A stretch of 64,000 nt of DNA, taken from the NCBI GenBank assembly GCA_963707955.1, contig OY970176.1, positions 256,001 to 320,000 on the forward strand, read 5' to 3'. The position numbers and the translations under genes are program-made. Positions 13,524 to 44,214 of this stretch are shown in pieces (within the stretch, counting starts at the first letter, position 1; each line of letters opens with the position of its first letter). The notes under the pieces were generated by a model. The model was not told the DNA's origin, made no database searches, and saw nothing but the letters and a program-made list of their open reading frames with translations. Source of the DNA: Candidatus Bathyarchaeota archaeon (GTDB lineage Archaea > Thermoproteota > Bathyarchaeia > Bathyarchaeales > Bathycorpusculaceae).

Positions 13524-13561
13524 TACATGTCATCCGCGAATGGCTAAGACGGAGAAGCCTT

Positions 13562-28076: not shown

Positions 28077-28574
28077 CTAGTAGCGTCTTTGTCGGTAGCC
28101 GCCTCTTCTGTCTCGTCCGCCGAAATCGCGTCTGCCGCCGCCGAAGTCTCCTCTGTCGCCTCCTCTGAACGGCCTTCTCGGCTGTTCGTACACTTGGGTG
28201 GACATGTTGTTTTCAGTGTTCACTTCACCCGCAATTGGTTGCTCCGCAATTTCCAGTGTGCCGTATCTTCCGACGTTCAGACGCATGTTGCCCCTGAACA
28301 GGTTTATGTAACCGTTCTTGACGTTTATCGTGTCTCCTTCTTTCACTTTCTCAATGTTGTCGTCCCAGAGTGTTACGTAAATGCATCCTGTCTCGTCTCC
28401 GACCATTGCGTCGCTCACTTTGTGCGGCTCTCCGTCTCTTCCGGCGGCAACGTTTCTGACTTCGCTCTTAGATAAGACCTTTGCCAGAACGTTAACGGCT
28501 CTGGAAGAGGGGTTTAATTCGCCCACTTTCGCGTCTACGGGTTGTCTAGCTCCAGTAAAACCTTCAACTGCCAA
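28077..28574 (-). CDS. ssb: Single-OB-fold ssDNA-binding protein with RG-rich tail
   Basis: VGDETG.I..TLW, LNVGRYG; crenarchaeal-type SSB. Confidence 0.9.
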   Translation of the reverse strand: MAVEGFTGARQPVDAKVGELNPSSRAVNVLAKVLSKSEVRNVAAGRDGEPHKVSDAMVGDETGCIYVTLWDDNIEKVKEGDTINVKNGYINLFRGNMRLNVGRYGTLEIAEQPIAGEVNTENNMSTQVYEQPRRPFRGGDRGDFGGGRRDFGGRDRRGGYRQRRY

Positions 28575-28627
28575 GCTTTTTCAACGTCCTATTTTTTCAA
28601 CGATTCAACCATAACAAAATAACCACA

Positions 28628-28642
28628 CTTAAGCCTTTTGGT
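28628..28642. repeat. Left att core CTTAAGCCTTTTGGT, overlaps putative ssb BRE/TATA
   Basis: Identical 15-mer at 40853-40867; both followed after 16 nt by TAAGTAC. Confidence 0.85.
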
Positions 28643-28691
28643 GCGTACTTTTTTTAGCTAAGTACCTACCTTTTCTGGTTCCCAGCCGCGG

Positions 28692-30131
28692 TTAGACTTT
28701 GATGCTGCTTCTGAGGGCTTTGGGCCTGCGGTAGTAGCTTATGACGGTTCCTGCGACTGTGCGTTCGTCGTATTTCTGAGCGCCCAGCATACCCATCTGC
28801 TTGATTTCCTCGTCTGTCGACGCGGTGAAAACGTCGTAGTCTTCGGGCCTTGTCAGCTTGATTCTTCTCACGTATTTCATCGTGCTGTTGATGTTTCGGT
28901 GTCTCAGTTTCTCTTTGACGATGAGCATGTTGCCGTTGAAAAGCCAGGCTAACTGTGTTCCAGCCCAATGTCGGAAGCTGACGAAGCTTACTTTGAGGAG
29001 CCTTGGGTTCTGAGTGCGCGCTGCTGCTCTTCTTCTCAGTTTAATGTAGATGCTCTGCATGTTGCGGTACGTTGTGGGGAAAACTTTGGTACTCGTCTTC
29101 GGAAGCGCGTCCAGCATGTTTAACAGTTTCGGGCTGACCTCAAACTCTCCTGCCAAGTGGTCTTTGACCGGATGGTTTATGGCTATGACGCCTCGTTTGG
29201 TGTCGACGTCTTCCCAGCCGATTCTGAGGACCTCCTCTGGATCTGCGAAGGTTTCTTTCAAGCTTTGCAGGTAGGCTCTGAGCCGCGCACTCGTCGTTGC
29301 CGATATCAACGTGTCAAGTTCGTCTTCTTGCGGCAGGAAGAAAATGAAGTCTTCTTGCCTGTACGAGGGCATAGTCCAGCTGAGACCCGCCATCCGCGTA
29401 AAAGCGTCGTAAGCGTACGCAGCCTGCATTTTGGTTCCGTCTTTCCACTTTTTCTTTGAGATTATGGCCTTGACCTTGTCCGGGTTGTAGATGTCGCAGC
29501 CTTCCGAGTTGAGCAGCATGCGTATGCACGTGGTATACTTGCAGTTGGCGCCGTAGCCTTCCTTGTCCAGGTAAAGAGCGTACTGCAGGAGAAGGCCCTT
29601 CTTGGCTTTCGCGTCTAACGTGCCCAGGTGTGCCTTGACTTCTTCTCTATCTCCACCAACAGTCTTCGTTTCTGTTGGAGTGCTCAAGTTTTTCGCCTCG
29701 ATTTCCTCGGCGCATACTCGGCCACTCAGATCTATAGTGCTCGTGCTTCTTAAGCTCAATCTCTCAAGGTTCTCAACATTCTCAACTGCTTGAGACGACG
29801 AATATTCAACCTTGGAAGGCTCAGAAAAGCGGTATCCGCAGAGTTTGCAGTAATATCGTTGAACCTGCTGCTTGACGCCTTCCCTGGACACGAAGCGGAA
29901 TCCGCTGTGAATGATTGCCTGGGACCCACATTCCGGACACCTGAGGGGCTGGTTTGGGAGCTGCTGCGGCTGGATCTCCTGGTCAAGACCCAACTTCCCA
30001 TTGGTTCGTCGCTTTGCCGAGGTGTAAGGTGAAAGTGAAAGAACAGCTTTTCCCCCAGCCCCGTTTTCATTCGTGTTCGTCGTCGTCATCGTCAGCCCTT
30101 CTAGGTCGAGCTCCTCGCGAGACAATACCAC
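28692..30131 (-). CDS. Tyrosine integrase with N-terminal Zn ribbon
   Basis: CPECGS..CKLCG; SFRHW, LRHRNINSTMKY; first Arg position reads ADPEE. Confidence 0.88.
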   Translation of the reverse strand: MVLSREELDLEGLTMTTTNTNENGAGGKAVLSLSPYTSAKRRTNGKLGLDQEIQPQQLPNQPLRCPECGSQAIIHSGFRFVSREGVKQQVQRYYCKLCGYRFSEPSKVEYSSSQAVENVENLERLSLRSTSTIDLSGRVCAEEIEAKNLSTPTETKTVGGDREEVKAHLGTLDAKAKKGLLLQYALYLDKEGYGANCKYTTCIRMLLNSEGCDIYNPDKVKAIISKKKWKDGTKMQAAYAYDAFTRMAGLSWTMPSYRQEDFIFFLPQEDELDTLISATTSARLRAYLQSLKETFADPEEVLRIGWEDVDTKRGVIAINHPVKDHLAGEFEVSPKLLNMLDALPKTSTKVFPTTYRNMQSIYIKLRRRAAARTQNPRLLKVSFVSFRHWAGTQLAWLFNGNMLIVKEKLRHRNINSTMKYVRRIKLTRPEDYDVFTASTDEEIKQMGMLGAQKYDERTVAGTVISYYRRPKALRSSIKV

Positions 30132-30406
30132 TCTTTGATGAGGGTCCAGCGGTCGCCACCGAATTCGTGCATAAGCAGGTTTCCTACTCCTCGATGCCAG
30201 CTAACTTCAGCGCTTACGAGGATGCCGACGACCTGGCCTGCCGGAGTTTCCACGATGCAATGATAATTCAGGAAGCGCCTCAGCATCGTCTGCGCCTCTG
30301 ATGGGCTAGCCACTTTTTCCCCTCGGTTTTGAGAATGAAATCTTGGCAGTAAGGGGCCCGCGACAAGCATCCACCGGCCATGCATGCTAACGCTCGCTTC
30401 AAGCAT
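30101..30406 (-). CDS. Small protein with possible Sm/LSm-like fold
   Basis: LRRFLNYHCIVETPAGQVVGILV..GNLLM resembles Sm1 motif. Confidence 0.5.
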   Translation of the reverse strand: MLEASVSMHGRWMLVAGPLLPRFHSQNRGEKVASPSEAQTMLRRFLNYHCIVETPAGQVVGILVSAEVSWHRGVGNLLMHEFGGDRWTLIKEWYCLARSST

Positions 30407-32255
30407 GCTGCTGCTCTCCTGCGATTAGCTTCTCAAGTTTGAGGCCGCAGTCTGAGCAGAGGAGTCCCCAGGATCCGTCGTGCTCTGTTACTTGCCACTC
30501 CATGTGAACCCTGCGACCGCAGGCCTGGCAGTTGTTCTCTCCAAAATCGCTCATCAGCCGTCCAAGCTTCTGCGTCTTAGAAGCTAGGTCCTGAAGTATT
30601 TGTGGAGAATGCAGATTTTGCACGCTTTTCTGATTATCTGTTTTTTCCTGCACGCTTTCAGCCGAGGGGCCTTCGTTTGGGCTTAGAACATTAACCGAGG
30701 AATCCTGATTTTCGTCTGAGAAGTGCCTAGTGTATATGGCTTCAGGCGTCGTCTCAGCATCATCGACCAAGTTTTCTCTGAGTAAAATTTTGTTTTCCTC
30801 GATTATCGATTGGGCCTCATTTAGCCAAGCTTTGAACGATTCGAGGCTGAAAAAAACAGATAAATCGTTTTGCGTGCATTCTCCGTTTTTTTCCTGAATC
30901 ACTTCAAGCAGGTTCTCCCGCTTGTCCGCTGGGTTAGGAATCTTCGACATGTAGCCGATCAAGCATAGAAAGTCAACCCAGTTGCGGATCGTGTCGCTGC
31001 TCTTGCGATCTGGAAACTTCGCGTTCCAAGAGTCAGTCAGGTCCTTGACAGTCAGCAGGGAATCCACCTTCTCCTTGGCCATTGGCTCAACGACTTCATG
31101 GAAGAATCGCAGGTGATGACTGGCAGCGCTTGTCTCCGTTGTCTCCCGGATCTCCTGCCAGAGGGCCAGGGTGTTATCATAATCTGTCTTCGTTGCCAGC
31201 ACATACGCGCGCTGCATGTCCTTCAGCTTCCTGACGAGAATGGGCCTCTGTGCAAGGTGAAACAACGCGCTAACCTGGATCAGGCCCAGCACGTGTTTGA
31301 AGTCTCTCATGGACCTTGGAAACCGTGCAGGAAACGTGTTCGCAAATGCTGCAGCATACGGAACGATGGCCTCGAGCTCCTGCACGTGAGCCTTGAAGTA
31401 TGCGATGTACGCCTCCAACAGAACGTCGTCCTGGTCCTTCTCAAACTTCCAGGGAAAAGCAGCCTTTGACCCCGTTAGTACGTTAGCATCTTTGAATTTG
31501 GCTTCCGTCGTCTCCGGCGTGAACGTGAAGCTCCTCGTAGCCAAGTCCTGGATGAACCTCTCGCTGGTACTGCAGAAAATCGTCGCAGGCCAACCTCGCA
31601 AAACAACATGCGTCGTCCGGAGGGCTCCCTTCTGACCTGTGTCCGTGAACTTGTAGCTGATCTCAAAAACGTCATGGCTTAGGACTGGCCGAAGCTTGTT
31701 GAATGTCTCGATGTTTGGCGCCTCGACGAACACGAGGATCCTGTCTTGGAGGTCGACGACGTAATGTGCGGTCTTGATTTTTTCCTTGAATTCCCGGTAC
31801 GCGTCTTTCTCTTCCTCTGTAGCGTCCTTGTCCGGCTTGGAAACGATTATGATAGGCTCGCCGTCCTCGTCGACGAGCAGGCCTCGATCGTGCACTAGGG
31901 CCGTAGGCGATAGGCCTCCCAAGAACCAGACGTCCTCTTTCGGAAAGTTTGTCAGGCTGTTGACGACAACGTATGTTTTTCCGATGCTGCTTTCACCTCG
32001 AAGAAAGAGGTTTAACGGCTCCTTCGTGTATGCGCTGAGGCCTGTTTTCAAGACCAGGTTGCTCGTCATCCTGTCGTGTTTCACTGTTCGCCCGATGTGC
32101 TGCATGAACTTGCTTTCCAGCTCTGGGTCAACGGCTAACACGTCGCCTGCTTTGAGTCCTCCGAGTTCCTTCAGTTTTTCAAGGTTGAAGAGAGAATCCG
32201 TCCGGCGCGCTAAGTCTTCCGGAACCGCAAAATCTTTATGCTGTTCGTGACTCAT
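30399..32255 (-). CDS. P-loop AAA+ replication ATPase/helicase (MCM-like) with C-terminal Zn finger
   Basis: GESSIGKT Walker A, ILVFVE Walker B-like, ATRS, PRSMRDF; CQAC..CSDC. Confidence 0.7.
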   Translation of the reverse strand: MSHEQHKDFAVPEDLARRTDSLFNLEKLKELGGLKAGDVLAVDPELESKFMQHIGRTVKHDRMTSNLVLKTGLSAYTKEPLNLFLRGESSIGKTYVVVNSLTNFPKEDVWFLGGLSPTALVHDRGLLVDEDGEPIIIVSKPDKDATEEEKDAYREFKEKIKTAHYVVDLQDRILVFVEAPNIETFNKLRPVLSHDVFEISYKFTDTGQKGALRTTHVVLRGWPATIFCSTSERFIQDLATRSFTFTPETTEAKFKDANVLTGSKAAFPWKFEKDQDDVLLEAYIAYFKAHVQELEAIVPYAAAFANTFPARFPRSMRDFKHVLGLIQVSALFHLAQRPILVRKLKDMQRAYVLATKTDYDNTLALWQEIRETTETSAASHHLRFFHEVVEPMAKEKVDSLLTVKDLTDSWNAKFPDRKSSDTIRNWVDFLCLIGYMSKIPNPADKRENLLEVIQEKNGECTQNDLSVFFSLESFKAWLNEAQSIIEENKILLRENLVDDAETTPEAIYTRHFSDENQDSSVNVLSPNEGPSAESVQEKTDNQKSVQNLHSPQILQDLASKTQKLGRLMSDFGENNCQACGRRVHMEWQVTEHDGSWGLLCSDCGLKLEKLIAGEQQHA

Positions 32256-32366
32256 GTTTGATTGCTCCTAGAGTTGTTCTGTGGGCGTGGGGGAGGCGAG
32301 GCTTCCAACGGAGAAGAAAACAAGTGAACTTCGCGCCTCCCAGGTTTCCACGCATTCCACGATGGT

Positions 32367-32717
32367 TCACTGCGCCTTTTTACGTCCGATTTTCGTTCCG
32401 TCAGTGAATTTCCACACGAAATAGGGCCCTACTCGCATTTTCCCCTTGTGCTCGGCGAGAATTCTCGTGAGCTCTTGGAACACGGGGTTTGTCGGGTCGT
32501 CAGCCTGCTCGTAGGGGCCCTTGGAGCCGTCGGCCGCCTGCCAGGGGATGCGTGACAGATCTAGTTCGCTCTTTCCTTTGGCTCCGGCAGCAGATCCTGC
32601 TGCAGGCTCTTTCTGCAATCCTTGAAGCTGGGCTACTTCATGCTTGACCTTGACAGCTGCTGCCTCGAGCGCGTCAGCCAGGTCGACGAGGATCTCGAGG
32701 GCTTTGTCGCTACTCAT
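32367..32717 (-). CDS. Hypothetical MGE protein
   Basis: ORF coupled to RHH gene; WQAADGSKGPYE. Confidence 0.7.
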   Translation of the reverse strand: MSSDKALEILVDLADALEAAAVKVKHEVAQLQGLQKEPAAGSAAGAKGKSELDLSRIPWQAADGSKGPYEQADDPTNPVFQELTRILAEHKGKMRVGPYFVWKFTDGTKIGRKKAQ

Positions 32718-32902
32718 GCCTTGGGGCCCTCCTGGAAGATTCTTTTGTATAAGTCAGGGGCGTCGCGTTGAATTTTCTCGCGGATAGCGTCGCGGATGAG
32801 ATCGCTCTCGTTCATGTGAGAGTCGAGCGCTACGAACTGTTCCATGAGCTTTTTCAGAGTGTGGGGAACGCGCGCGTTGATTCTAATTTCGTTTTCTGCC
32901 AT
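32714..32902 (-). CDS. Ribbon-helix-helix (CopG) regulator
   Basis: IRINARVPHTLKK..NESDLIRDAIREK. Confidence 0.85.
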   Translation of the reverse strand: MAENEIRINARVPHTLKKLMEQFVALDSHMNESDLIRDAIREKIQRDAPDLYKRIFQEGPKA

Positions 32903-32976
32903 ATGTATTTCCTTCGTACGACAAAGGTAAGTCATAAATACTTAAAACCTCTTAATTGAGGGTTAGGAGATTCTAC

Positions 32977-33603
32977 ATGGCAAAGCTCAAACTGTGGAAA
33001 ACGTTAGCAGAAGAAACGTTCAAGTGGATAGAAAATCAGAAAAAGTTGAAGAGGCCAGGAAGACGCGAAGAAGAAAGCGAAACAGAGGAGGGCAGGAGAA
33101 AGCAGCACTGGTACAAGATTCGAGAAACTGCTAAGGCAGAGATCCTCGATCTGAAGAGACTTGCTGACATTCTGCCTGAAGACCAGCTGCAGCAAATCTT
33201 CAATGAAAAAAACCTGTGCAGCCCAGACGAAAAAGGCAGACCAAGCCTCTTCCAGGTACTATTCAGCTTCTCCGAAGAGCATGGAGTACACGTTGGTACG
33301 TGGGTGGAAGACAAAGTAGTGAAAGGAGAGCAGAATAAGATTAGTTTGACGGCTGACGCCTTGAAGAGAAGGGTCCGGATCCTGGAACTATCACGCGCCA
33401 TCATAGAGATGCTCGACGGCGATATTCCTAATCTTTCTGGCCCGTTAGCACCAGCGTTTCACGACGTCACTCTCCGAGAAGGGGGAGCGCTACCACACCT
33501 ACGAGCAATTTACTATGCTTCACTCCGACAGGCTCAGGAAGAAGGCCTCGCTCAAGCAAGAAAGAGTTCCAAAGAGGCTCCGGCCTCCAGAGAACGTATC
33601 TAG
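32977..33603 (+). CDS. Hypothetical protein divergent from replication operon
   Basis: 209-aa ORF with AGGAG RBS. Confidence 0.7.
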   Translation: MAKLKLWKTLAEETFKWIENQKKLKRPGRREEESETEEGRRKQHWYKIRETAKAEILDLKRLADILPEDQLQQIFNEKNLCSPDEKGRPSLFQVLFSFSEEHGVHVGTWVEDKVVKGEQNKISLTADALKRRVRILELSRAIIEMLDGDIPNLSGPLAPAFHDVTLREGGALPHLRAIYYASLRQAQEEGLAQARKSSKEAPASRERI

Positions 33604-33910
33604 ACGTTCCCAGACCGTCTGCAGAGGCTTCCAGACCCTCTCCAGAGGGGGTTTCAACGCTTTTGGCAACATGAAAAAGGCGAATTTCAGAGCCCTCCGA
33701 TTCGAGGGATCCAGCCCTCGGAATAGGACCCAAAATCCTGAAAATTGACCCTTTCTGGTCAATCCGTGCACCTCTGAATCAGAGGTGGAAAGTTCAACAT
33801 TATGTCGCGCGACATAATGTTAGCTGGCTAAGCTGTCGATCGGGGGAGCCCCCTCGAAATCAGAGGTAGAGCATGCCGTAATCAGAGGGGGAACTTCGCG
33901 CTCGCGCTCT
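33587..33910. promoter_or_regulatory. Putative origin/recombination region: phased repeats and palindromes
   Basis: 21-bp tandem unit (33607-33648), CCTCTGAATCAGAGG palindrome (33771-33785), 26-bp palindrome (33796-33821). Confidence 0.6.
33796..33821. repeat. Perfect 26-bp palindrome AACATTATGTCGCGCGACATAATGTT
   Basis: Read directly from sequence. Confidence 0.95.
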
Positions 33911-34163
33911 TGAAACAGGGCTTCAATTCCAAAGCCTCGCGAAACAGTCGACACAGTAGTATCTGGTTCGCTGTGAGCCTTTCCCGTAATGTCCAAGATG
34001 GCGCCAAACCTGCTGTTTCATTTCCAGACTTCGTCCACATGACCGGCAGCTTGCGTCCTTTCGATGAAGAATGACAAGTGAGAAAGCGGGCAAGTCTAGG
34101 CCCTCAGACAGAAATAGAAGATAGTTCTATATGTCTTTTTCTGAACCTATAACAATCTTGCTT

Positions 34164-34394
34164 TCACTTCTGCAGCGTTCCGGTTCCTCTGCCGTCACTC
34201 AACACCTCTCCCTTCTCATAATCCGCTGCACAGGGGATGAAGACCTTGAAAACTTGACCTGCGCAAGCGGCGATATCAGAGGGGGAGAGAACGTTAACTG
34301 TCTCACCGCGCTGCCGGTCTGAAAAAGCACTTTCAAGGACCAGGCGTTTGATGAATCTCCTCTGTTGTGCTTCTTTGCTGTGTCGATTGACCAT
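34164..34394 (-). CDS. Hypothetical protein
   Basis: ORF in minus-strand operon; no motif. Confidence 0.35.
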   Translation of the reverse strand: MVNRHSKEAQQRRFIKRLVLESAFSDRQRGETVNVLSPSDIAACAGQVFKVFIPCAADYEKGEVLSDGRGTGTLQK

Positions 34395-34463
34395 TGAAGA
34401 AAAGCTTTCTGAGTTCTAGGAAGATAAGATTTGTCTACGAAGGCGTGTCAAAACGTGCCCATT

Positions 34464-34715
34464 CTAGAGATATCTTCTGCTCTTCAACTGGCTTCTAAGT
34501 TTTCCGTAGTCTTCAACGAACCTGCGCGCGCGGTCATAACGGTTTCGAAGCCTGAAGAGCATATTCCTGGCAGAGACGTATTCCATGTGTGTCTGCGATG
34601 CAGCATAACGGAGGGGACTAGTGTGCTTGTCCTTGATGGCTTGAAGCAGGACGTCGACTAACTGTTTCTCTCGCATGGTCAGTCCGACATGAGAACGCTC
34701 ACTCAAAATGTACAC
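34464..34715 (-). CDS. Small basic protein, possible HTH
   Basis: LTMREKQLV..LRYAASQTHM..SARNMLFRLR. Confidence 0.6.
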   Translation of the reverse strand: MYILSERSHVGLTMREKQLVDVLLQAIKDKHTSPLRYAASQTHMEYVSARNMLFRLRNRYDRARRFVEDYGKLRSQLKSRRYL

Positions 34716-34825
34716 CCCCTTTCTGCTCTCTAATTAAGGTGACAAGTACCTCGTTTGACGTTTGCATGTCACTCAAACAGAGAAACGTCCCCTCCTCTGA
34801 GTCGGGGTAGTAGGGGCAAACAGTC

Positions 34826-35599
34826 TCAGTTGATAGTAGCATGCTCTACCTCCATTTTGACTATTGGCTTGAAACGACAGCCGAGGGCGTACTCAGGGAC
34901 CGTCCCGGCGTACTTGCACACGTTGACGATGCTGCAGTCACTGCAAGGTCCAGAACATGCTTTTAATTTGCCCTCTGCTAAGGGCCCGTTCATGACTTCG
35001 TCGTATGCCGATTGAACGTCCTCGAAATAGACGAGCCTAGCCAGGTAGAACTGAGTGTACGCAAGGCTCTTATGGCGAAGGATCCTGCGGAGAACTTCAA
35101 GGCTTTTCCCGCTCTGATGCCACTCTGCAGCGAAGAAATGTCTCAAGATCCGAGGATTGAAATCGTCGACGCCAGCGTCTTTAGCTATCGTTCGCGCTCG
35201 GATCCAGACCGTCGCTGTGCGCAGGGGGTTTTCGCTGCGTATGTACTTCCAGCTTCTTTGCTGCCTGAAAACGTAACCCTCTGACCTTTTCCCAGCGAGG
35301 GCCCTGATGAACTCCAACGTCACCGGGTCCAACGGCAACGGATACAGCTTCTTCCGTTTGCTATCCAGAACCTGGAAGGTTCTGCTTTCAAAGTCAATGT
35401 TCTCTATTCTGAGGGTGCAGATCTCCCCGGTGCGAAGGCCTATCTTCATTGGCAATCGAATGAGCAGGTAATCCCTGGGTTCGCAGTTTGCCCGCGCGTA
35501 ATCGTGCACGCTGATGATGTCACTGCGTTTGATTATGAGAGTTTCCCGCGGCTCGCCTAGGGGCCCCTCTGAGTATTGCGGACTTGCATTCAAGGTCAT
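34826..35599 (-). CDS. Second tyrosine recombinase (catalytic domain) with Cys-rich tail
   Basis: GLRTGE, SKRK, PRILRHFFA, LRHKSLAYTQFY; CSGPCSDC..C..C. Confidence 0.9.
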   Translation of the reverse strand: MTLNASPQYSEGPLGEPRETLIIKRSDIISVHDYARANCEPRDYLLIRLPMKIGLRTGEICTLRIENIDFESRTFQVLDSKRKKLYPLPLDPVTLEFIRALAGKRSEGYVFRQQRSWKYIRSENPLRTATVWIRARTIAKDAGVDDFNPRILRHFFAAEWHQSGKSLEVLRRILRHKSLAYTQFYLARLVYFEDVQSAYDEVMNGPLAEGKLKACSGPCSDCSIVNVCKYAGTVPEYALGCRFKPIVKMEVEHATIN

Positions 35600-35850
35600 G
35601 TTTTCGGCGCCTCCGTTCTCGGCAGCTGCTCGAGCTCCGTCCTCGTCTGTCTGATCATCTCCTGGATTTCCTGCTCTAGCCCCTGGAGATGCTTGAGTTT
35701 TGTTTCCAGGGCCCTTCGCTGAGTCCTAAGCGTTCCAGCTCTGCCGAGGTAGACTTCAGACTTGTGGCCGCTGCCGTCGTAGGTCCAGAAGTACTTGTAC
35801 GTGTGGCCTTTAACCGTCTTGTCCAGGAAGCCGAAGGTAAACTGGGTCAC
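35596..35850 (-). CDS. Small DNA-binding protein, SSV1 D335-N/DUF6788-like, with coiled coil
   Basis: KTVKGHTYKYF...EVYLGR motif. Confidence 0.6.
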   Translation of the reverse strand: MTQFTFGFLDKTVKGHTYKYFWTYDGSGHKSEVYLGRAGTLRTQRRALETKLKHLQGLEQEIQEMIRQTRTELEQLPRTEAPKT

Positions 35851-36122
35851 TGCGTCACTTCTCCTCTGAGTGATGCCCGGAAGGCCCTCAGGTCCTCTCG
35901 TAGCTGCGCAGCCTCTGCGTCTTCGATCGTGATTTGACCTTTCAAGGTAAGCTTAGAGTTCATAACGCGCTGGGAACTTTGTCCTTTCACATGACCGCAC
36001 TTCGGGCACTTGAGGCCCTCCTCTGTCAGAGTCCACCTGTCCAGCTCTGAGGTGATTCTGCATGCCTCGCAGACCCTGCCGATGTACTTCGTCATGTTGA
36101 TTCTTCTCGTGTAAGTCCTCAT
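35847..36122 (-). CDS. Zn-finger protein
   Basis: CEAC...CPKCG. Confidence 0.7.
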   Translation of the reverse strand: MRTYTRRINMTKYIGRVCEACRITSELDRWTLTEEGLKCPKCGHVKGQSSQRVMNSKLTLKGQITIEDAEAAQLREDLRAFRASLRGEVTQ

Positions 36123-36270
36123 GAGTTATCCCCATTTAGGTATAATAGCTTAGCTGGATATAAAGGTTATCCCTGAATGTCGATAACCCTCTGACCATCA
36201 AACCGAGGAGCCTCCAACCCCCAGAATTCGTGTTTTCAGAGGAAAAGTAAGTACACATGTGCTCAGATCT

Positions 36271-36630
36271 CTAACTTCTGTAGGTTTCAATCGGAGGCGC
36301 CTCGCCAGTGCTGGTAGGGCCCCGGTTTGAATCAGGACCCCCCTCGGAAACTGGACTTTTCTGTCCGATTGTAAGCACTTCTCGTCTTCTGTTCTCCTGG
36401 TACTTTGACTTCTGTAGTGTGACCGTGCCCTTGCTCTTGGCCAGGTGCGCCTCGAGGAAGTCGCCTTCTTTCCAGCCGAGGGTGCAAAGCCATTTCTGGG
36501 GAAGAGTCACGGCCTCAGCGTTTCCGGACCTGCGGATCTTCACTGTCCGCCTCATGTCTATGTCTGCTAACAGTCGGTCCACGTTGGCGCCGTACTCTTT
36601 CTTGAAGAGTTTACTTAGCTCGCCCTTCAA
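36271..36630 (-). CDS. AbrB/MazE-type DNA-binding protein
   Basis: VKIRRSGNAEAVTLPQKW...GWKEGD; TTG start overlaps upstream stop. Confidence 0.8.
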   Translation of the reverse strand: MKGELSKLFKKEYGANVDRLLADIDMRRTVKIRRSGNAEAVTLPQKWLCTLGWKEGDFLEAHLAKSKGTVTLQKSKYQENRRREVLTIGQKSPVSEGGPDSNRGPTSTGEAPPIETYRS

Positions 36631-37028
36631 GTCTCCTGAGCCCCCTGCAGCTTCTTCGCTTCTTCCTCTGAGGTTTTCCTGAGTTTCCTCTGATCGACCT
36701 TGCTCAAAAGTGTCGCATTGATTACGTAGAGTTCTCCTTCGTTCCAGACCACTTGGTTCATCACCATATCTGTGTGCGTGACTTGGCATATCGCACGAGC
36801 CCGGAGGTATTTGCCAGTATCTACCGTACGAATCTGGCTGTACTTGCCTGACTTCTTAATATCAAACCAAAGCTTGTCGCCACGGCTGGCCCACATATTG
36901 AGTTTTTTCATGAGCTTAGAGATTTCCTCGTCTGAGCAGTGCTTCCCTATGGAGAACACGACGAAGCAACTTCTGGGAATCATCCCTTTTCTTGCCTTTA
37001 AGAACACCGGCTCCTGATTTGTTGACAA
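36627..37028 (-). CDS. Hypothetical protein, paralogous to C-terminus of 37031-37492
   Basis: IPRSCFVVF...GELYVINATLL vs IPRSAFILF...GEVILINETRL. Confidence 0.65.
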   Translation of the reverse strand: MSTNQEPVFLKARKGMIPRSCFVVFSIGKHCSDEEISKLMKKLNMWASRGDKLWFDIKKSGKYSQIRTVDTGKYLRARAICQVTHTDMVMNQVVWNEGELYVINATLLSKVDQRKLRKTSEEEAKKLQGAQET

Positions 37029-37030
37029 CT

Positions 37031-37492
37031 CTAGTGGGCCCCCTGCAGCTTCTCGACCTGCAGCCTGTCAAGCCTCGTCTCGTTGATCAGGATCACTTCC
37101 CCAGCTGAGCGCTCACCGGATGTCGACACGAAGATATCTTCGTGCTTGTGCGTCCATTCTTTGAGTTTGTCCCATTCGCCCGGAGGTAGAGTGAAGAGGA
37201 TGAAGGCGCTGCGAGGTATGTGGAACTCTCTATGTTCTACGAAGGGGTGCTTGGCCTTGGGGCCCGTCTTCTGGACAGCTGCGCGCATAAGATGGCTAAC
37301 TGCCTCTGATATCCCTCCTGGATAGTGCGGGTAGACAACGCGGTCCTGGAAGTCTTGAAGCAAGTCCTTTGAAACCGTGCAGCAGACCAGTGCCTCTCCT
37401 TTTAAACTGTTCTTCTCTGCTTCTTCAATGAGTCTGCGGGTTCCGGCTGCAACTTCATGTACGAGGTCGCTCTGACTTGTTTGTTTTTCCAA
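37031..37492 (-). CDS. Hypothetical protein with RHH-like segment
   Basis: VCCTVSKDLL..GISEAVSHLMR. Confidence 0.65.
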   Translation of the reverse strand: MEKQTSQSDLVHEVAAGTRRLIEEAEKNSLKGEALVCCTVSKDLLQDFQDRVVYPHYPGGISEAVSHLMRAAVQKTGPKAKHPFVEHREFHIPRSAFILFTLPPGEWDKLKEWTHKHEDIFVSTSGERSAGEVILINETRLDRLQVEKLQGAH

Positions 37493-37596
37493 CTCTTACA
37501 CGTCCCGCTTCTCATGTATCTGTGCAAATGCTATATAAGGCTTTACGAAGTATTACTAAGTTGCATAAAGTCTTAAAGAGTTATGGAGGTAGCAGA

Positions 37597-37773
37597 ATGG
37601 TGTTGGAAGTTTTGGAAATGGTGAGAGCCCGAGTTTTTGCCACGATCCGCGAGGACCTTCTCAGCTGGGTCGATGACCAGGTCAAGAGCGGGAGGTTCCG
37701 GAACCGGAGCCATGCGCTCGAGTATGGCTTGATCAAACTGCGAGAGTCAGATCAGAAACGCGGGGGGGAATAG
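37597..37773 (+). CDS. Ribbon-helix-helix regulator
   Basis: GGAGGT RBS; ATIREDLLSWVD..GRFRNRSHALE. Confidence 0.85.
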   Translation: MVLEVLEMVRARVFATIREDLLSWVDDQVKSGRFRNRSHALEYGLIKLRESDQKRGGE

Positions 37774-37778
37774 AAAGC

Positions 37779-38159
37779 ATGAGCAAGAACGAATTTACGA
37801 CAGTCTCAAAGTTGTGGGATCCACCTCGGCCGACGACGCTGCAACAGAGGTGGGAACGCTGGCTCAGGGACAACTCGTACGGCAACGGAAGCGAACATGC
37901 CAGAAGGTTCCCGGTTGATGGGACGGTCCGCTTCTTTTATGACCCGAATCCAGTGACTTTGAAGGTCGGCGACAACGTTGTCCTCGGCTTAGATGAGGCC
38001 GTGCAGCCTGTCCGACTCCTGGTTAATGCTACTTTCAACAAGGTCAGCGGCGACGGGGGCGTAAAAGTGACTGTTGAAAAGGCCACTTTGAAAGAGCTTG
38101 GGCTTGATGAAAAATCACTCAACATCCTCGTGCGACGGATTCTTGCAGGAGGTGACTAA
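37779..38159 (+). CDS. Hypothetical protein
   Basis: ORF in plus-strand operon. Confidence 0.65.
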   Translation: MSKNEFTTVSKLWDPPRPTTLQQRWERWLRDNSYGNGSEHARRFPVDGTVRFFYDPNPVTLKVGDNVVLGLDEAVQPVRLLVNATFNKVSGDGGVKVTVEKATLKELGLDEKSLNILVRRILAGGD

Positions 38160-38161
38160 GG

Positions 38162-38965
38162 ATGGTCAGTAAAGACTTTTCACTGAAGTTCGTAATCCCT
38201 TTCAACGCTGACAAGGTTGACTCACAGTTAGCCATCAGGGAGCGCCTTCTCAACATAGAAGGCGTCGCGATTGATACAAGCGTCAACGCGAACAAGTGGC
38301 AAATCCCGCCTGAGGACTTGGACTATTTCACGGCGACGTTGAAGGGGGCTCAGCTGCGCGTCGATCACGCTGAAAGCGCGCTTGCAGTCATCGGCATCGT
38401 GCCTGAAGCGAGGCGGGTTGGCAGCCAGGTTGTCTTTCGCGCAGAGATTGGCGACGCTGCATTAATAGAAAAAATCCTACGTGGCTACATCAGCAATGTG
38501 AGCGCACAAGTGGACTCTGATAACGTTGAATGCTCAAAGTGCTTGAAGCAAACGCGGAAAGAAGGCATGCTCATCCACCTCTGCCCGGGCGCTTGGGAAA
38601 TCGTCCATAAACCCAAAGTCAGAGAACTTAGTATCGTCGCCAGCCCGGCATATGAGAAGACGAAGTTCCTGCCAGTTGGCTTCGCGCAAGCTATGGATGC
38701 GTCGCAGTCGCAGAAGTTCAGTGCCGAAGTCGGCAATCCAATGCAGCCGTTGACGAAAGGGATTCTGGTTTTAAAGCTAAAACTGCTGACAAGGGAAGTG
38801 GAACGTCAAGACATAGCTGCAAGAATAGCTGCTATTGACTCTCAACTAGCTGAGTGGGATTTAGAGAGCACTGCTAAGCCACTGCATAAATATGAAGCTA
38901 AGAGACAGCAAAGACCTCAAACCTTCATGGACGAACTACACGCTGCAGTTAACACGCGACCGTAA
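38162..38965 (+). CDS. HK97-type prohead maturation protease with coiled-coil tail
   Basis: IEGVAI, LRVDH, IG.V, ISNVS, CSKC..H.C insert, RELSIVASPAY. Confidence 0.8.
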   Translation: MVSKDFSLKFVIPFNADKVDSQLAIRERLLNIEGVAIDTSVNANKWQIPPEDLDYFTATLKGAQLRVDHAESALAVIGIVPEARRVGSQVVFRAEIGDAALIEKILRGYISNVSAQVDSDNVECSKCLKQTRKEGMLIHLCPGAWEIVHKPKVRELSIVASPAYEKTKFLPVGFAQAMDASQSQKFSAEVGNPMQPLTKGILVLKLKLLTREVERQDIAARIAAIDSQLAEWDLESTAKPLHKYEAKRQQRPQTFMDELHAAVNTRP

Positions 38966-38992
38966 CTGACAGCATGCTTGGAGGTGAAAACT

Positions 38993-39118
38993 ATGTCAAA
39001 AAAGACTCATCGGTTTGATTGGGATGGTACGCCGAAAAAAGAGGAGCCGCTACAAGAATCCCTCGGTGGTCCCGGCGGCCCAGGCGTGTTCAACCGAAGC
39101 AAAAAGCGCAGGCAGTAG
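38993..39118 (+). CDS. 41-aa small basic protein
   Basis: GGAGGTGA RBS; MSKKTHRFDWDG...KKRRQ; absent from ORF track. Confidence 0.55.
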   Translation: MSKKTHRFDWDGTPKKEEPLQESLGGPGGPGVFNRSKKRRQ

Positions 39119-39128
39119 GTGAAGCTGG

Positions 39129-39437
39129 ATGTCAGAACAAAAGGTGTTCAACCCCAAAGAGTTCGCCAAGGAGAGCCAGGCACTGAAGGAGGTCTACGAT
39201 CCTGACATGGGCCTAATCAGGTATCGCCCTCTGCTCTTCAATGATTTGGCTGCACTTGAGAAGGCCGGAACAAAGGCAGAGAGAAGTCAGCTGGCACTTT
39301 TCACGATGCTGAAAGCTGGCTGTCTGGACTTGACTCTTGAGCAGGTGGGACAGTTTGAATTGAGGAAGGCTGCATTATTGCTCAAGCGCATAGCCGGAGA
39401 CCTGGTGCCCGCGCTGAGAGAATTCGGGTTGGAATAG
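39129..39437 (+). CDS. Putative tail assembly chaperone-like protein
   Basis: ~100 aa; IRYRPL..DL...LTLEQV..F pattern typical of siphovirus chaperones. Confidence 0.45.
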   Translation: MSEQKVFNPKEFAKESQALKEVYDPDMGLIRYRPLLFNDLAALEKAGTKAERSQLALFTMLKAGCLDLTLEQVGQFELRKAALLLKRIAGDLVPALREFGLE

Positions 39438-39446
39438 GCGAGAAAG

Positions 39447-40490
39447 ATGCTGTTATGTGAACCGGAAAGAAACCTGAGCGCTGAGCAGAGCCTCATTAAT
39501 GATACTAACTTGTACGGAGCTAACTCAACGTCGTTCGGGACGATCCATGACTATGGTAACATTACGGTTCCAGCTGGCGGAAGCTTAGTCGCCTTCAGTC
39601 TTGAAACCCTGCTTGCCCACATCAGCTTCATAAACGGGGCCGTCCTCGCCATCCAAGTTGGCAGTCTCAAATACGTCGCAGGCTACTATTACGACAACAA
39701 CGGCCCAGACGAGAAGCACCTCGGCGCGCTGATTTGGCTTTCAGCAGGAACCTACGATATCTCTGTCGTTGGTCTTGTTCCGGACATAACGGAAACCGTG
39801 GAAATATATAACATGAAGGTTGGCCTTGTCCAGTTCAACGATGTCCAGCCGTCAGCACTAGCATACTACACGGCAGCGACAAACTCGATACAGCTTACAG
39901 TTCCAAATCGGACGTTGCCAGTCGGAAGCTTGAACCAGGCAGTATTCGCCATTAACATCTGCACAAGCGGAACCCTAGGGTCAACATTCGTCTTGACTGT
40001 AGACGGCGTTGCTCACACTGATATGGATGAGTCAAGCTGGCTCGAATATCCAGGGATCCAGCAGGTTAATGGGTATGACATCTACAAGTTTTACATTCCA
40101 CTTTCAGTCGGAGTCCAGCACACGATCGGCATCGCACTTTCAGGCGGCGCCGTCGCTTACGCCTCCGTAATCGCGTGCCCATGGATATGCGCCCTCGCAG
40201 GAAGACGACACAACCCTCTCAAGCTGAGCTTCTCGCAGCTGAGCACTTTCTACGTTGACATTGGCAGTCTCTTCAATAATGGAGCAAAAAACTGCTACAT
40301 AGGCGCGCAAAAAGCCATTTCATACGGAGCAGCCGATTACGGTCCTACTGCATCGCAGACGAGTACTGGCGGGATGCTTTCCTTCAGCTACACCTTCACA
40401 GCCGTAAGCGTGTCAGCCTCTTCCTTCGTCGTAGACTCAAACAGTGTTCTCGGCAGCTGCATCGAAAACATCGCGGTGGACATTCAATAG
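39447..40490 (+). CDS. Beta-rich putative virion/tail or receptor-binding protein
   Basis: Ser/Thr/Gly/Tyr-rich, low charge, no signal peptide. Confidence 0.5.
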   Translation: MLLCEPERNLSAEQSLINDTNLYGANSTSFGTIHDYGNITVPAGGSLVAFSLETLLAHISFINGAVLAIQVGSLKYVAGYYYDNNGPDEKHLGALIWLSAGTYDISVVGLVPDITETVEIYNMKVGLVQFNDVQPSALAYYTAATNSIQLTVPNRTLPVGSLNQAVFAINICTSGTLGSTFVLTVDGVAHTDMDESSWLEYPGIQQVNGYDIYKFYIPLSVGVQHTIGIALSGGAVAYASVIACPWICALAGRRHNPLKLSFSQLSTFYVDIGSLFNNGAKNCYIGAQKAISYGAADYGPTASQTSTGGMLSFSYTFTAVSVSASSFVVDSNSVLGSCIENIAVDIQ

Positions 40491-40852
40491 GAAGCATGAA
40501 CAGAGGCGACCTAACGTCTAATCAGAGGGGGTTCTCCCTCGAATCAGAGGCGCGCCCTCGAATGTGAACTCAATCAGAGGACGAGTCCAATCGGAGGGGC
40601 CAAATGGGAAAATATAGGAAAGTATAGACTTTTGGGGTTAACTTCTGGGACTTCTGGTTCAAATGAACCGAAAGTTGAGCTCCCTCCGGAGGAGCTGTGA
40701 ATATTCCGCGCGGCATAGCTTGGATCTCAGTCAGGTCCTTCTAAGACGTCGACGACGTCGATGAGGGGGCCGGGTGAGCCTGTCAACGTTGAAAAACAGA
40801 AAAAAAGAGGGGTTGCGGTGGAGATGAGTGTTGTTGACTCCACTTGGGGTTG

Positions 40853-40867
40853 CTTAAGCCTTTTGGT
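40853..40867. repeat. Right att core CTTAAGCCTTTTGGT
   Basis: Identical to 28628-28642; adjacent to the 3' end of the second integrase remnant. Confidence 0.85.
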
Positions 40868-40897
40868 AGTGCAGTTTTGACTGTAAGTACTCCCTGT

Positions 40898-41600
40898 CTA
40901 CGCAAGGCTGACGAATCTCTTTGGTTTTCTGTAGAGGTGGATTCCGTTGAACTCGTCGTATTTTTCGAATCCTGCTTCTCCTAGCTTCTTGACTTCCTCT
41001 ACGGTTGTGGCTGCTGTCACGTCGTAGTCGCTGTCCTTGAACTCGATGAGCTGAGTGTATTTCATGGTGCTGTTGATGTTCTTGTGCCCTAGCAACTTCT
41101 TGACCAGGAGTATTTTGTTTGTGCGGAAATAGACCATTGTGGCTCCCCAATGCCTGAACGTGACTAGGCTGATCTTGAGGATCCTTGGATTGTTGAGTTT
41201 CGCAGCTATCCTCTCTCGCATGGTGAAGTAGCATCGAGCAAGCACCTGATACGTTGTCGGAAAGATCAACTCTGAAGTCTTCGGCAAAGCATTGAGCATC
41301 GAGCACAGATTATTGCTTACCTGTACCTGTCTCGGATAGTGTCCTTTGACAGGCCTGTTGATTGTTACGACGTTGCCGTTCAGGTCTATCCATCGTAGCC
41401 TTAAAGCTTCTGAGGGGTCAGCCATCGTTTCCTTTAAAGTTTGTAGGTAAGCCGTCATCCGTTTGCTGTTAGCCTCCAAGACCAGGGCATCAATTTCCTT
41501 CTCGTCAGGCATGAAGGGAAACGCTTCTTCTTGGCGGAATCTCGGGGAGTCCATGAGAGCTTCAACATCTTCGTCAAAGCGTCATAGGCGTAGGTCACCT
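40898..41600 (-). pseudogene. 5'-truncated, frameshifted paralog of the 28692 integrase
   Basis: ETMADPSE, TFRHW, LGHKNINSTMKY; upstream frame VTYAYDALTKMLKLSW matches AAYAYDAFTRMAGLSW; homology ends at GCGCGCGC 41601. Confidence 0.88.
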
Positions 41601-42174
41601 GCGCGCGCAATTGTTGGTGGTCACTCTAAAGGGATGATGATGAGAGCGCGCTAAGATTAGGTGATAGAATGAAAAAACCTTTAAGGTCGAAAGAAAGAAG
41701 ATTGAGATTATTGAATGGTAAGAATGTTAAAGCTGTTCTGTCTGATCGAACAAATGCTATCGGGACATTAAATCATGTTGGAAGAGGAATATGGAGTATT
41801 ACTGCAATAAAGAGTCTAAAACCTTACAAAAGGGAAAGTTAAGATGAGGTAGATTTGATGCACAGATTTCTTGTTCAAGGACTTTCAACTATTGCTTACT
41901 ACATTCGCTTCTCTTTTCCTAATGTTTCGTTTGCATTATTCCTTCTTGCGTATTCAATTATAAAGTTGACTTACATTAGCATAGACGGAACACGTTATCT
42001 AAGAACAGGTGTTTATTTCTTTCCTGATGTAATACCATTATCTGAAATGGAAGTGCTAGTTTTTTCTCGTGCTTCTTTCTCACGAAATTAGCGCGCGCTC
42101 GCGCTCCATCCAAAATACATGGTAGAAAAAGGGGAAGATGCAGGAAATATCGCCAGTTAGAATGAAAATGAGCT

Positions 42175-42268
42175 CGCGCGCAACGGCACCCATCTCAACG
42201 GCAAGCTTGGCAAAATTCTTCAAATCATCTTCAAACACCGTCTCACTATTCACGTTGCTTCTATCCAT
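42175..42268 (-). pseudogene. N-terminal fragment of a DUF2284-like protein
   Basis: DDLKNFAKLAVEMGAV then abrupt junction at CGCGCGC. Confidence 0.4.
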
Positions 42269-42283
42269 TTCTAGGCCTCATTT

Positions 42284-43159
42284 CTAAGACTCGGTGGTCA
42301 ACCCAAGCATCTTTGCTGTTGCATCCCACAAAGACTTCTGGGCTTGTTGGTCATAGGTTATGGGAGTCGTGCTTGTTTCCTTCAGTTTTGAGAAGCATTT
42401 TCCAGTCACACCTTCAACCTCATGCGATGATGCTAAATATACTGCGGTTTCGGCACCCTTCTTCGGAGAGATTAGAAAAGGTCGCATCATCATAAACATA
42501 AAAGATTGTATACGACTGCCACTATTCTTTCCGAGGTTAGTTGCAACCAAGCCCGGTTGAACTGCGTTAACAGTGACTCCAGTGCCTTGTAGACGCCTAG
42601 CCAATTCATATGTAAACATTATGAGCATCAGCTTTGCATTGGCGTACGAATTCGCACGCCGATAAGAAAATCCCCTATAATTCTTCTCATTCTGAAGATC
42701 GTCAAGATCAATCCTTCCTAATTTGTACAGTCCAGAAATTATGTTTATAATCCGAGACGGAGCACTGCTCTTCAACGAAGGTAACAGTTTGTGTGTGAGA
42801 AGAAATGGTCCGAGATAATCTACCGCCAATGTCAGCTCAAAACCATCAACTGAGGTTTGACGCTTGCTGAAAACAGCGCCAGCATTATTAATCAGTACAT
42901 CAAGTTTTTCATATTTTTCCGCAAACTCCTTTGCAAATTTTCGGATTGAACCTGCCGAGGACATATCACAAATCATCAAGACTGTCGATTGGGTACCAGT
43001 TTTATCAATTACCTCTTTCAAGGCTTTCTCACCACGTTCTTGGCTTCGCACGGTCATAACAACGGTTGCGTCCATGTTCGCCAAAGCCATAGCTGTTTCT
43101 TTACCCATTCCAGAGTTGCTGCCGGTTACAATACAGACCCTGCCTTTCATTTCGCTCAT
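42284..43159 (-). CDS. SDR oxidoreductase (retinol-DH-like), cargo
   Basis: TGSNSGMG, NNAG, YANAK, PGLVAT; AT-richer than the backbone. Confidence 0.9.
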   Translation of the reverse strand: MSEMKGRVCIVTGSNSGMGKETAMALANMDATVVMTVRSQERGEKALKEVIDKTGTQSTVLMICDMSSAGSIRKFAKEFAEKYEKLDVLINNAGAVFSKRQTSVDGFELTLAVDYLGPFLLTHKLLPSLKSSAPSRIINIISGLYKLGRIDLDDLQNEKNYRGFSYRRANSYANAKLMLIMFTYELARRLQGTGVTVNAVQPGLVATNLGKNSGSRIQSFMFMMMRPFLISPKKGAETAVYLASSHEVEGVTGKCFSKLKETSTTPITYDQQAQKSLWDATAKMLGLTTES

Positions 43160-43261
43160 TTTCGTTCCTCGCGACTAGCGCACACAGAGGTAGAAGCGCG
43201 CGCTATTAACCTTCAGCAGAGAAAAAAGGGAATTGTGCGGGAGACGTCTCAAATATTATAA

Positions 43262-43277
43262 CATAAGGCTTTTGGTG
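43262..43277. repeat. Third, degenerate att core CATAAGGCTTTTGGTG
   Basis: 14/16 identical to 28628-28643; next to a third integrase tail. Confidence 0.7.
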
Positions 43278-43298
43278 TGGATGTTCGATCTTTTGGTG

Positions 43299-43400
43299 TC
43301 ATATTTTGATGCTTCCGAACCTTTTGGGTCTCCTGTAGTAGCTGATGTGCGTCGCTCCAACGATGCGTTTATCGTATTTCTGGTATCCCTGCATGCCCAA
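43299..43400 (-). pseudogene. C-terminal 33-codon remnant of a third integrase paralog
   Basis: LGMQGYQKYDKRIVGATHISYYRRPKRFGSIKI* vs MGMLGAQKYDERTVAGTVISYYRRPKALRSSIKV*. Confidence 0.85.
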
Positions 43401-43475
43401 ACTAAATTCTATGGGTGCGTTATTCTGCCGAAAGTGATAAATTCTGAAATAGAAAAACACGGTGAGTGATAAAAC

Positions 43476-44214
43476 ATGAACTGCAGAATCGTGTTGCTCA
43501 GTTTGATCTCAGCATTCCTGTTGCTTGCATTTGTCGTAGAAGCGTCAGCTCAAACGAGGACGGTAGGCGTCAGCGTGGGCAACACGTTTACGTACAGTGC
43601 CATCGCTGGTCTGGAGTTCAAACGACCCAAATGCTACGCCTCCGTCCGGCCTAGTGGAACTCAACAAGACACAATGGTTAGAGGTTGCCGTTACAGCAAT
43701 TTCTGGCACAAACATAACTGGACAACTGACAAGCCATTACAAGAACGGGACCGAAATAACCTCGGGCGGTTGGGTAGACGTAGACACTGGAGGCAGCGTG
43801 AACCTGACAACTTGGTTCATTTCAGCCAACCTAGTCCGAGGCGATTTGATGTACACTCTTTCGCCATACAACACTACGACGATAAATGAGACCGTAACCA
43901 GAACGTATGCCAATGGTGTGAGAGACACAAATCATGTAAACCTGACCAGTGTTTCAACATCTTCCTTGGGAAATCTCAGCCTTGCTACTAATCTGTACTG
44001 GGACAAGTCAACAGGGGTGGTTGTTGAATTTTCGACAGGAGAGTCCAACCAGACGGGAACACACACGACAACGTGGTCAGAAGGCTTGCAAATCTCAGAC
44101 TCAAACGTCTGGACGGTGCCTGAGTTTCCCATATGGACCACACCGCTGATCATGCTCAGCGCGGTCGCTGTGATCATTGCCAGAAAAAGGCAGCCCAGAA
44201 GACCGCTCCGCTAA
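43476..44214 (+). pseudogene. Secreted PEF-CTERM surface protein, frameshift near 43608
   Basis: Signal peptide and VGVSVGNTFTY in one frame; WSSNDP...VPEFP-TM-RKR in another. Confidence 0.75.

Follow-up and report, generated by a model that had tools for sequence, protein, structure and literature searches.

A 64,000-nt stretch of DNA from a Candidatus Bathyarchaeota archaeon (assembly GCA_963707955.1, contig OY970176.1, positions 256,001 to 320,000), here called the window, was found to contain a real integration hotspot at the core promoter of ssb, a host gene that encodes a single OB-fold SSB protein. The target class is unusual and apparently systematic. The explanation that best fits the results as a whole, and which we consider likely, is that tyrosine integrases from mobile elements of Bathyarchaeia use a 15-mer in the ssb core promoter as an attachment site on the chromosome (attB), and that elements insert at this site and accrete. 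An earlier reading of the same DNA, made without database searches (the sequence-only reading), had proposed an integrase family that targets the conserved core promoter of ssb, rebuilds the promoter on integration and accumulates in tandem. That proposal was supported by the comparisons described below: empty sites retained the 15-mer, and homologous integrases were linked to ssb in other genomes.

Core repeats, integrases and the ssb promoter

The 15-mer CTTAAGCCTTTTGGT was present as exact copies on the plus strand at 28628-28642 and 40853-40867, and TAAGTAC was located exactly 16 nt past the core in both cases, as the sequence-only reading had stated. A third copy, CATAAGGCTTTTGGT, at 43262-43276 was identical at 13 of 15 positions; with the next G added it matched copy 1 at 14 of 16, the figure given earlier, and TAAGTAC was absent after it. 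Since a fourth match (13/15) was detected on the minus strand at 13510-13524, the window contained four matches with two mismatches or fewer, compared to 0.18 expected, and four were reached in none of 100 shuffles. The match at 13510-13524 reads ACCAAAAGTCTTAAT on the plus strand, lies approximately 40-55 nt before a plus-strand zinc-ribbon open reading frame (ORF), and was read as another promoter of the same consensus.

Each of the first three copies was close to the stop codon of an integrase, the gaps being 50 nt for int1, 31 nt for int2 and 23 nt for int3; the earlier claim that each copy lies within about 50 bp of a homologous integrase stop was therefore borne out. Int1 (28692..30131, minus strand) is an intact tyrosine integrase of 479 aa with an N-terminal zinc ribbon, a catalytic domain and a C-terminal ..YYRRPK.. 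tail. It was identified by alignment, by its score against PF00589 (32.3 bits, compared to a curated cutoff of 27.1 bits), and by matches to the phrog_1 integrase family and an IS1-type Zn-ribbon domain. Int2 (40898..41599, minus strand) is a 5'-truncated and frameshifted fragment comprising the catalytic domain and tail; it also exceeded the PF00589 cutoff (44.3 bits), was recognized from its translations and its place in an ssb-linked clade, and was 48% identical to int1. Int3 (43299..43394, minus strand) is the C-terminal tail of an int1-type integrase, with 65% identity to int1; at the nucleotide level it matched the G007:C6 integrase tail at 83%. An integrase tail had been placed correctly at 43299, its length being 31 codons plus the stop and not the 33 codons first reported. 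The motifs LR(I/L)xW, FRHW and (R/G)H(K/R)..STMKY, candidate positions of the catalytic Arg, His-x-x-Arg box, His/Trp and Tyr, were kept in int1, int2 and their relatives, in an alignment judged by eye only. The int1 ORF was uninterrupted and lay beside the core rather than across it, unlike the arrangement in SSV-type (type I) integration, where attP is within the integrase gene and the gene is split.

Element 1, an integrative element of 12.2 kb (28643..40852), was delimited by the exact 15-bp direct repeats at both of its ends and by family scans. Core copy 1 (28628..28642, minus strand) is taken as its left attachment site (attL); the minus strand reads ACCAAAAGGCTTAAG, which comprises the transcription factor B recognition element (BRE) and the first half of the predicted TATA box of ssb. 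This assignment draws on the exact repeat, a promoter matrix, conservation and the break in homology with relatives. Core copy 2 (40853..40867, minus strand), a 15/15 repeat, is taken as the right attachment site (attR), joined to the P' arm of remnant 2, and core copy 3 (43262..43276, minus strand), identified by sequence match, has the AAAGCC variant found in relatives. The P' arm of element 1 (28643..28691, minus strand) spans the 49 nt from the core to the int1 stop and contains ACTTAG..AAAAAAA and a second ACCAGAAAAGG half-site. At the opposite end, a P-arm motif consisting of an A-rich run, GGGG and TTGCGGTGGAGA (40798..40824, plus strand) was located 28 nt before core copy 2. The P' arms of int1 and int3 both carried a second ACCA(G)AAAG half-site, in keeping with a role as extra binding sites.

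It is highly improbable that the three 15-mers are plain consensus promoters of their own downstream genes that lie near integrase stops by chance. Copy 3 is approximately 100 nt upstream of a co-oriented gene for a short-chain dehydrogenase (SDR), and the consensus is frequent in the genome; however, copies 1 and 2 were identical over 15 nt, including a G/C variant that was not found in the nearest relatives, and copy 2 was followed by no minus-strand ORF of at least 50 aa within 500 nt downstream. A homologous integrase end and similar arms were present at each copy, and the homology with relatives broke exactly there. The 15-mers were also considered as target-site duplications of a transposase, but use of one and the same sequence in independent genomes speaks against this, and the idea was rejected.

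The ssb gene (28077..28574, minus strand; PF21473, E 1.7e-19; NCBIfam SSB models) had an orthologue in all 41 related genomes, and its start is 53 nt beyond core copy 1. A 16-nt promoter matrix was learnt de novo from the upstream regions of 26 tRNA genes of the same genome (ARAGORN). In its consensus, CCGAAAACCTTAAATA, the BRE-like half is A-rich and precedes a TATA-like half; the motif was positioned 28-55 nt before the tRNA 5' ends. When this matrix was applied to the 186 nt upstream of ssb (171 positions), the best match was the core, CCAAAAGGCTTAAGTG, at 10.4 bits, with a runner-up of 2.3 bits; scores of 10.4 bits or more were obtained at a fraction of 3.5e-5 of 200,000 random genome positions. 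In the 20 ssb loci that were fetched, ACCAAAAG(C/G)CTTAAG was found approximately 52-67 nt upstream of the start codon, and the core was present with at most two mismatches in 16 of the 20 (10/10 of the genus and 6/10 others). Three of the other four loci had a diverged core and in one the contig ended before the site. The tRNA-derived matrix and the conservation upstream of ssb orthologues thus backed the earlier call of a BRE/TATA-like core about 55 nt upstream of ssb, and supported the 15-mer as a host sequence and as the best candidate for the ssb promoter.

Empty and occupied ssb sites in related genomes

The gene order in relatives was ssb, a variable stretch, DUF59 and gcvPB. Synteny of ssb, DUF59 and gcvPB was observed in 9 of 18 relatives' loci, and the DUF59 gene was named for G001, G003, G004, G007, G008, G014, G015, G016, G021 and G022. 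In the window, this conserved right-hand neighbor of ssb is the host gene FeS_assembly_P (44505..44801, minus strand; PF01883, former DUF59), identified by its PF01883 match and by synteny in relatives. Homology to the window, followed outward from ssb, ended at 28642-28652 in all eight genus relatives compared, that is, 0-10 nt from the distal edge of the 15-mer, and was regained at 44387-44518 in G007, G001, G008, G003 and G004.

The nearest relatives were G001 and G007, which have 95% ssb identity. Both had a single core, at which homology stopped (28642 or 28648) before resuming at 44387 or 44394, and both are therefore empty sites. These empty ssb-DUF59 loci carried one copy of the 15-mer each, as the sequence-only reading required. 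After the core, they had a host gene, or its remnant, that was missing from the window. Relative to G001 and G007, the region 28643-44393 (15.75 kb) reads as an insert or replacement. A variant contig from sequencing run X3 matched the window as far as 28642 and then continued with a different sequence that resembled the int3 arm and G010; the G005 contig stopped at the core.

Occupied sites were also identified. In G041 (the genome of locus L082), a 400-aa integrase 70% identical to int2 was followed by 34 nt, ACCAAAAACCTTAAG, ssb, a malic enzyme gene and an HhH gene, as in the window. When one mismatch was allowed, the sole other match in 2.5 Mb was a 14/15 repeat, ACCAAAAACCTTAAC, in the same orientation and 6.7 kb farther upstream, so that the pair brackets a complete 6.7-kb element. 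In G012, the stop of a family integrase was 30 nt from the ssb core and the contig ended within the integrase gene, while the L084 contig ended at the core, 30 nt past the integrase stop. A decayed int3-like tail was found beside the ssb core in G010, and a P' arm like that of int2 in G003. The association of homologous integrases with ssb, which had been suggested as a check, was therefore confirmed in G012, G041 and L084, with int3-like remnants in G010 and the X3 variant contig. ACTTA(C/A)AG..AAAA was common to the P' arm of element 1 and the arms of int2, G012, G041, L084 and the G003 remnant. In G003:C6 and G004:C22, a family integrase 30-36% identical to int1 was observed 10-14 kb upstream of ssb, beyond gcvPB and in the orientation of ssb; this position may be a further docking site.

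In a tree built on the last 225 residues, the int2, G012, L082 and L084 integrases, all four of which are at ssb, formed one clade (support 93/99). Int1 grouped with L073 and a provirus integrase (100/98), and with L073 at 100/99. Since int1 and the int2 clade were separate in the tree, two integrase lineages use the ssb core.

It is very unlikely that the variability upstream of ssb arose mainly from joints at GCGCGCGC (CG) tracts, transposon-like cassettes or homologous recombination, with the integrases as passengers. Such tracts were present at 41601-41608, 42091-42098, 42175-42181, 43196-43203 and 44311-44319; the int2 homology stopped exactly at the first of these, the SDR gene was bracketed by tracts, and the right end of the stack was beside the last, approximately 70 nt before host homology resumes. 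The boundaries of element 1, however, were exact copies of the 15-mer, and the 90 nt around either core contained no CG tract. The same core bounded the G041 element, and in all eight relatives homology broke at the core and not at CG tracts. The earlier description of three stacked elements held for element 1, which is complete, whereas elements 2 and 3 were remnants cut at GCGCGCGC tracts, and the stack had no clean right end.

In the proposed mechanism of integration at the ssb promoter, attB would be ACCAAAAG(G/C)CTTAAG, the BRE and first TATA half of the ssb promoter. Recombination between this chromosomal core and an identical element core would place the element directly upstream of the promoter, with the 3' end of the integrase gene facing ssb across a P' arm of 20-50 nt. 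At attL the promoter would be restored as a host/element hybrid; at attR a second core would remain at the far end, preceded by the conserved P-arm motif. The crossover probably takes place in or near CTTAA, because the identity of the G041 repeat ends after TTAA and the G/C variant of the BRE half travels with the adjacent arm. Each newcomer would enter the ssb-proximal core, so that the newest element would stand beside ssb and older ones would be pushed outward and decay. The outcome here would be an intact element 1, followed by a truncated integrase and cassettes bounded by GCGCGCGC tracts, and then by the 31-codon tail, with a deletion having taken the original right end together with the host gene that relatives have there. 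We infer both this order of insertion and present-day mobility.

The integrase family at other promoters

A scan for integrase relatives, covering one genome per species, identified 25 loci with int1-family integrases, of which 24 were titled Bathyarchaeia or Bathyarchaeota. At L075 (DATKLC010000035.1), an integrase 50% identical to int1 was in a bin titled Krumholzibacteriaceae bacterium, which is probably a binning error. The 3' flanks of the family integrases mostly consisted of a TATA-like word and then a co-oriented gene, so that the family has several promoter targets, ssb among them. The downstream gene was EF-1alpha at L092, L096, L097 and the fourth integrase tail of the genome under study (G000, 238.5 kb), and a tRNA gene at L079 and L093. 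At L078 and L089 it was a gene whose product starts with MAKFKIIVSDPE, which we take to be S6e-like. Genes starting with MAYLTTTG were downstream at L086 and L091, with a similar flank in L076, and genes starting with MVRKARIR at L080 and L094.

Two of these targets were compared with empty sites. At the EF-1alpha site, a second promoter hotspot of this genome (G000, 238.4-240.2 kb, outside the window; L072), G001 was empty and its two homology blocks overlapped by 16 bp. G000 and G007 shared a 1.69-kb remnant in which a P-arm motif and a degenerate core repeat accompanied the tail of an integrase (..YYRRPKRF..), and G008, G009 and G004 had other inserts of approximately 4-19 kb. The junction was at the upstream edge of ATGATAAACTTAAAAT, the best matrix match in that flank (9.5 bits). 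At a winged helix-turn-helix (wHTH) gene, the G007:C6 element, the integrase of which was 65-68% identical to int1, ended 22 nt past the integrase stop, where the empty G000 site begins with ACGCCTTTAAACCC.

These junctions bear on the possibility that the attachment site is real and its overlap with the promoter incidental, the integrases picking any conserved intergenic word, which is unlikely. The start of ssb was predicted from sequence alone, and the available passages on other archaea describe intergenic attachment sites with no known promoter link, in 15 of 68 thaumarchaeal elements (PMC6563490) and in PsiM100 (PMC8371274). Set against this, the core was the single strong match of an independently learnt tRNA promoter matrix, ACAAAAGCCTTAAACT is the promoter sequence of this genome's tRNA-Pro gene, and the near-match at 13510 is likewise followed, at approximately 40-55 nt, by a plus-strand ORF. 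The EF-1alpha (9.5 bits) and wHTH junctions were also at the upstream edge of promoter-like words.

Two IMG/VR proviruses, G042 and G043, which encoded terminase, portal, HK97-type capsid and tape measure proteins, terminated in a family integrase that was 65% and 50% identical to int1, respectively. In G012:C38 and G014:C2, more distant relatives with a ..LFRKRK tail adjoined the 3' end of a tRNA gene and were beside homologues of the 618-aa protein of element 1.

A more tentative proposal, which we regard as possible rather than probable, is that the core promoter itself is the target class. The TATA box would provide the crossover point, at its (C)TTAA, and the variable BRE side would pick the gene, so that specificities could hop among strong promoters (ssb, EF-1alpha, S6e-like, tRNAs, TBP); DNA bent or marked by TBP and TFB might help. 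The T-run of the P arm, on the complementary strand just downstream of the attR promoter copy, would insulate the element. The Ty3 retrotransposon targets RNA polymerase III start sites via TFIIIB. The likeness is an analogy only, in that the docking site there is also a core promoter, to which TBP and a factor resembling TFB bind; the enzyme class, the mechanism and the domain of life all differ.

Several results weighed against integration at the ssb promoter as proposed here, or limited how far it could be taken. Transcription of ssb from the core is a prediction from sequence. The nearest relative of int1 (65-68% identity) was at another promoter and not at ssb, and for this reason the specificity of int1 for the 15-mer is read solely from the anatomy of element 1. 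Promoter targeting across the family was favored by forward matrix matches of at least 7 bits within 110 nt, which were obtained in 16 of 28 flanks that were at least 60 nt long, while the opposite strand gave 7 of 28 and shuffles averaged 0.25; this enrichment overstates independence, since loci share targets, and the matrix came from one genome. Distal repeats were not found at two other sites: the G007:C6 element had no shared word of at least 11 nt in 20 kb, and at the S6e-like site in G044 and G045 only the proximal copy was detected at two mismatches or fewer. At the right end of the stack (~44393) there was no fourth core at two mismatches or fewer, and with a CG tract near that boundary, remnants 2 and 3 must also have been shaped by processes other than integrase action. 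No joints of a circular or excised form were detected over 27000-46000 in the contigs of four runs from one study, of which X1 may be the source of the window, and the 25-mer of the predicted attP junction, for which the sequence-only reading had proposed a search, had 0 matches in metagenome_contigs and 0 in viral_contigs; contigs drop rare forms. Finally, the simple model leaves unexplained why, in G009 and G023, the P-arm motif next to the ssb core was oppositely oriented.

The arrangement in G023 is a second organization at the ssb site. A different PF00589 integrase of 346 aa (L058:606-1643), partly masked, was directly behind the core and motif and read away from ssb. A fully palindromic core, which would allow insertion in either orientation in G009 and G023, was considered and dropped, as the left halves of the window's attP-like sites do not mirror the right half. 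The G041 element also had a P-arm-like motif within its distal end, and another preceded the right junction of the EF-1alpha remnant. More generally, a conserved motif (an A-run, GGGG and TTG.GCGGGAGACATCGCC) was observed 8-28 nt from TATA-like words. In G000 it was located at genome positions 86677, 694756, 714946 and 717671 (L069-L071); the second of these is just upstream of the promoter of a TBP gene, and the others include a gene island. Homology to G001 and G007 resumed at the 694.7-kb motif site. CG tracts were also frequent around 714-718 kb of the genome.

Known systems and the anatomy of the stack

According to the available passages of two papers (PMC8371274, PMC6563490), tRNA genes are the main target of archaeal integration, with intergenic and intragenic sites and tandem arrays also described, as is the pTN3-like mode, in which the 5' half of a tRNA gene receives the element. 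In the accessible part of a thaumarchaeal survey (Krupovic et al. 2019, PMC6563490), 39 of 68 sites were in tRNA genes, 15 were intergenic and 14 were in the 3' ends of genes, and tandem integration into a single intergenic site was described for NitGar-E1/E2. The thaumarchaeal elements likewise have tyrosine recombinases and short direct repeats, but in those passages their intergenic targets are not tied to promoters, whereas here the core is a BRE/TATA sequence and the same register recurs at a second gene. The integrases described here also differ in belonging to a Bathyarchaeia lineage with a ..YRKPKRF tail.

The pTN3-like elements of Thermococcales, as presented in the available passages of PMC8371274, also integrate on the 5' side of a gene, which leaves element sequence upstream of that host gene. 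For pTN3, however, the 5' half of a tRNA gene serves as attB, integration splits the integrase gene, and expression of the tRNA is then driven by the integrase promoter. At ssb, the gene body was untouched, the integrase was whole and the host promoter itself was the core; the only tRNA gene of the window is at 54197-54272, and the core is upstream of a protein-coding gene. Compared to classical integrases that target the 3' ends of tRNA genes, with which they have PF00589 in common, the integrases with the ..YRKPKRF tail instead face the 5' side, or promoter, of co-oriented genes. Bathyarchaeia head-tailed proviruses (G042 and G043; families in the accessible parts of PMC10848311 and PMC11705971) have the same integrase family at the provirus end, whereas element 1 was without terminase, portal, HK97-type capsid and tape measure genes and looks plasmid-like.

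No attachment site tied to a BRE/TATA sequence was described in the available passages of PMC8371274, PMC6563490, PMC10848311 and PMC11705971, and a full-text search found no paper on promoter-targeting archaeal integrases; supplements were outside its scope, and intergenic sites suitable for comparison may be listed in Table S2 of PMC6563490. Site choice in archaea is usually summed up as tRNA genes, some gene 3' ends and unspecified intergenic sites; here the intergenic site has been named, as the BRE/TATA of a highly conserved housekeeping gene. If correct, this identification would provide a rule for locating element boundaries in Bathyarchaeia, and perhaps in other uncultured archaea, and would account for hypervariability just upstream of strong promoters between close strains. 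A further, testable question would be how an element restores or adjusts an essential gene's promoter and copes with the additional promoter copy at its distal end. Because the cores are short and defined, they could become landing pads for genetic tools, of which the group so far has none.

Element 1 comprised, in order, attL, the P' arm, int1, a 101-aa ORF (30101-30406), a 618-aa protein (30399-32255), a second, short Xer-like recombinase of 257 aa (34826-35599; PF00589, 79.7 bits; NCBIfam XerA model below its cutoff), an AbrB/MazE-like protein (36271-36789), ORFs of no known family, including those of 267 aa and 347 aa, the P-arm motif and attR. The family scans revealed no recognizable capsid genes. 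Homologues of the 618-aa protein adjoined family integrases in G018, G026, G012:C38 and G014:C2, and element 1 is therefore considered to have a recurrent, plasmid-like backbone. A lead, and no more than that, came from the Atlas, where the 618-aa protein fell near clusters in which 10-41% of members have PF27228. No free relatives of this protein were found in viral_contigs, and it was not similar to the 646-aa protein beside the integrase of provirus G042.

Remnant 2 consisted of the int2 fragment, a low-GC stretch with the SDR gene, a P-arm motif (43220..43245, plus strand, identified by sequence) 16 nt before core copy 3, and core copy 3 itself. The GC content at 41-43 kb was 0.43-0.44. 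The SDR gene (42284..43159, minus strand; PF00106, E 1.6e-35), which has CG tracts on either side (42175-42181 and 43196-43203), is cargo of remnant 2 or a later cassette. Beyond the int3 tail, the rest of remnant 3 (43395..44393) comprised a pair of plus-strand ORFs (43476-43889 and 43597-44214) and the CG tract at 44311-44319, with no distal core. The two ORFs are probably one signal-peptide gene once the base at 43610 is omitted. When the run contigs were compared to the window, single-base indels were observed at 33701 and 43610 in all four runs and at 33841 in X1 and X3; these positions are probably small assembly errors in the window.

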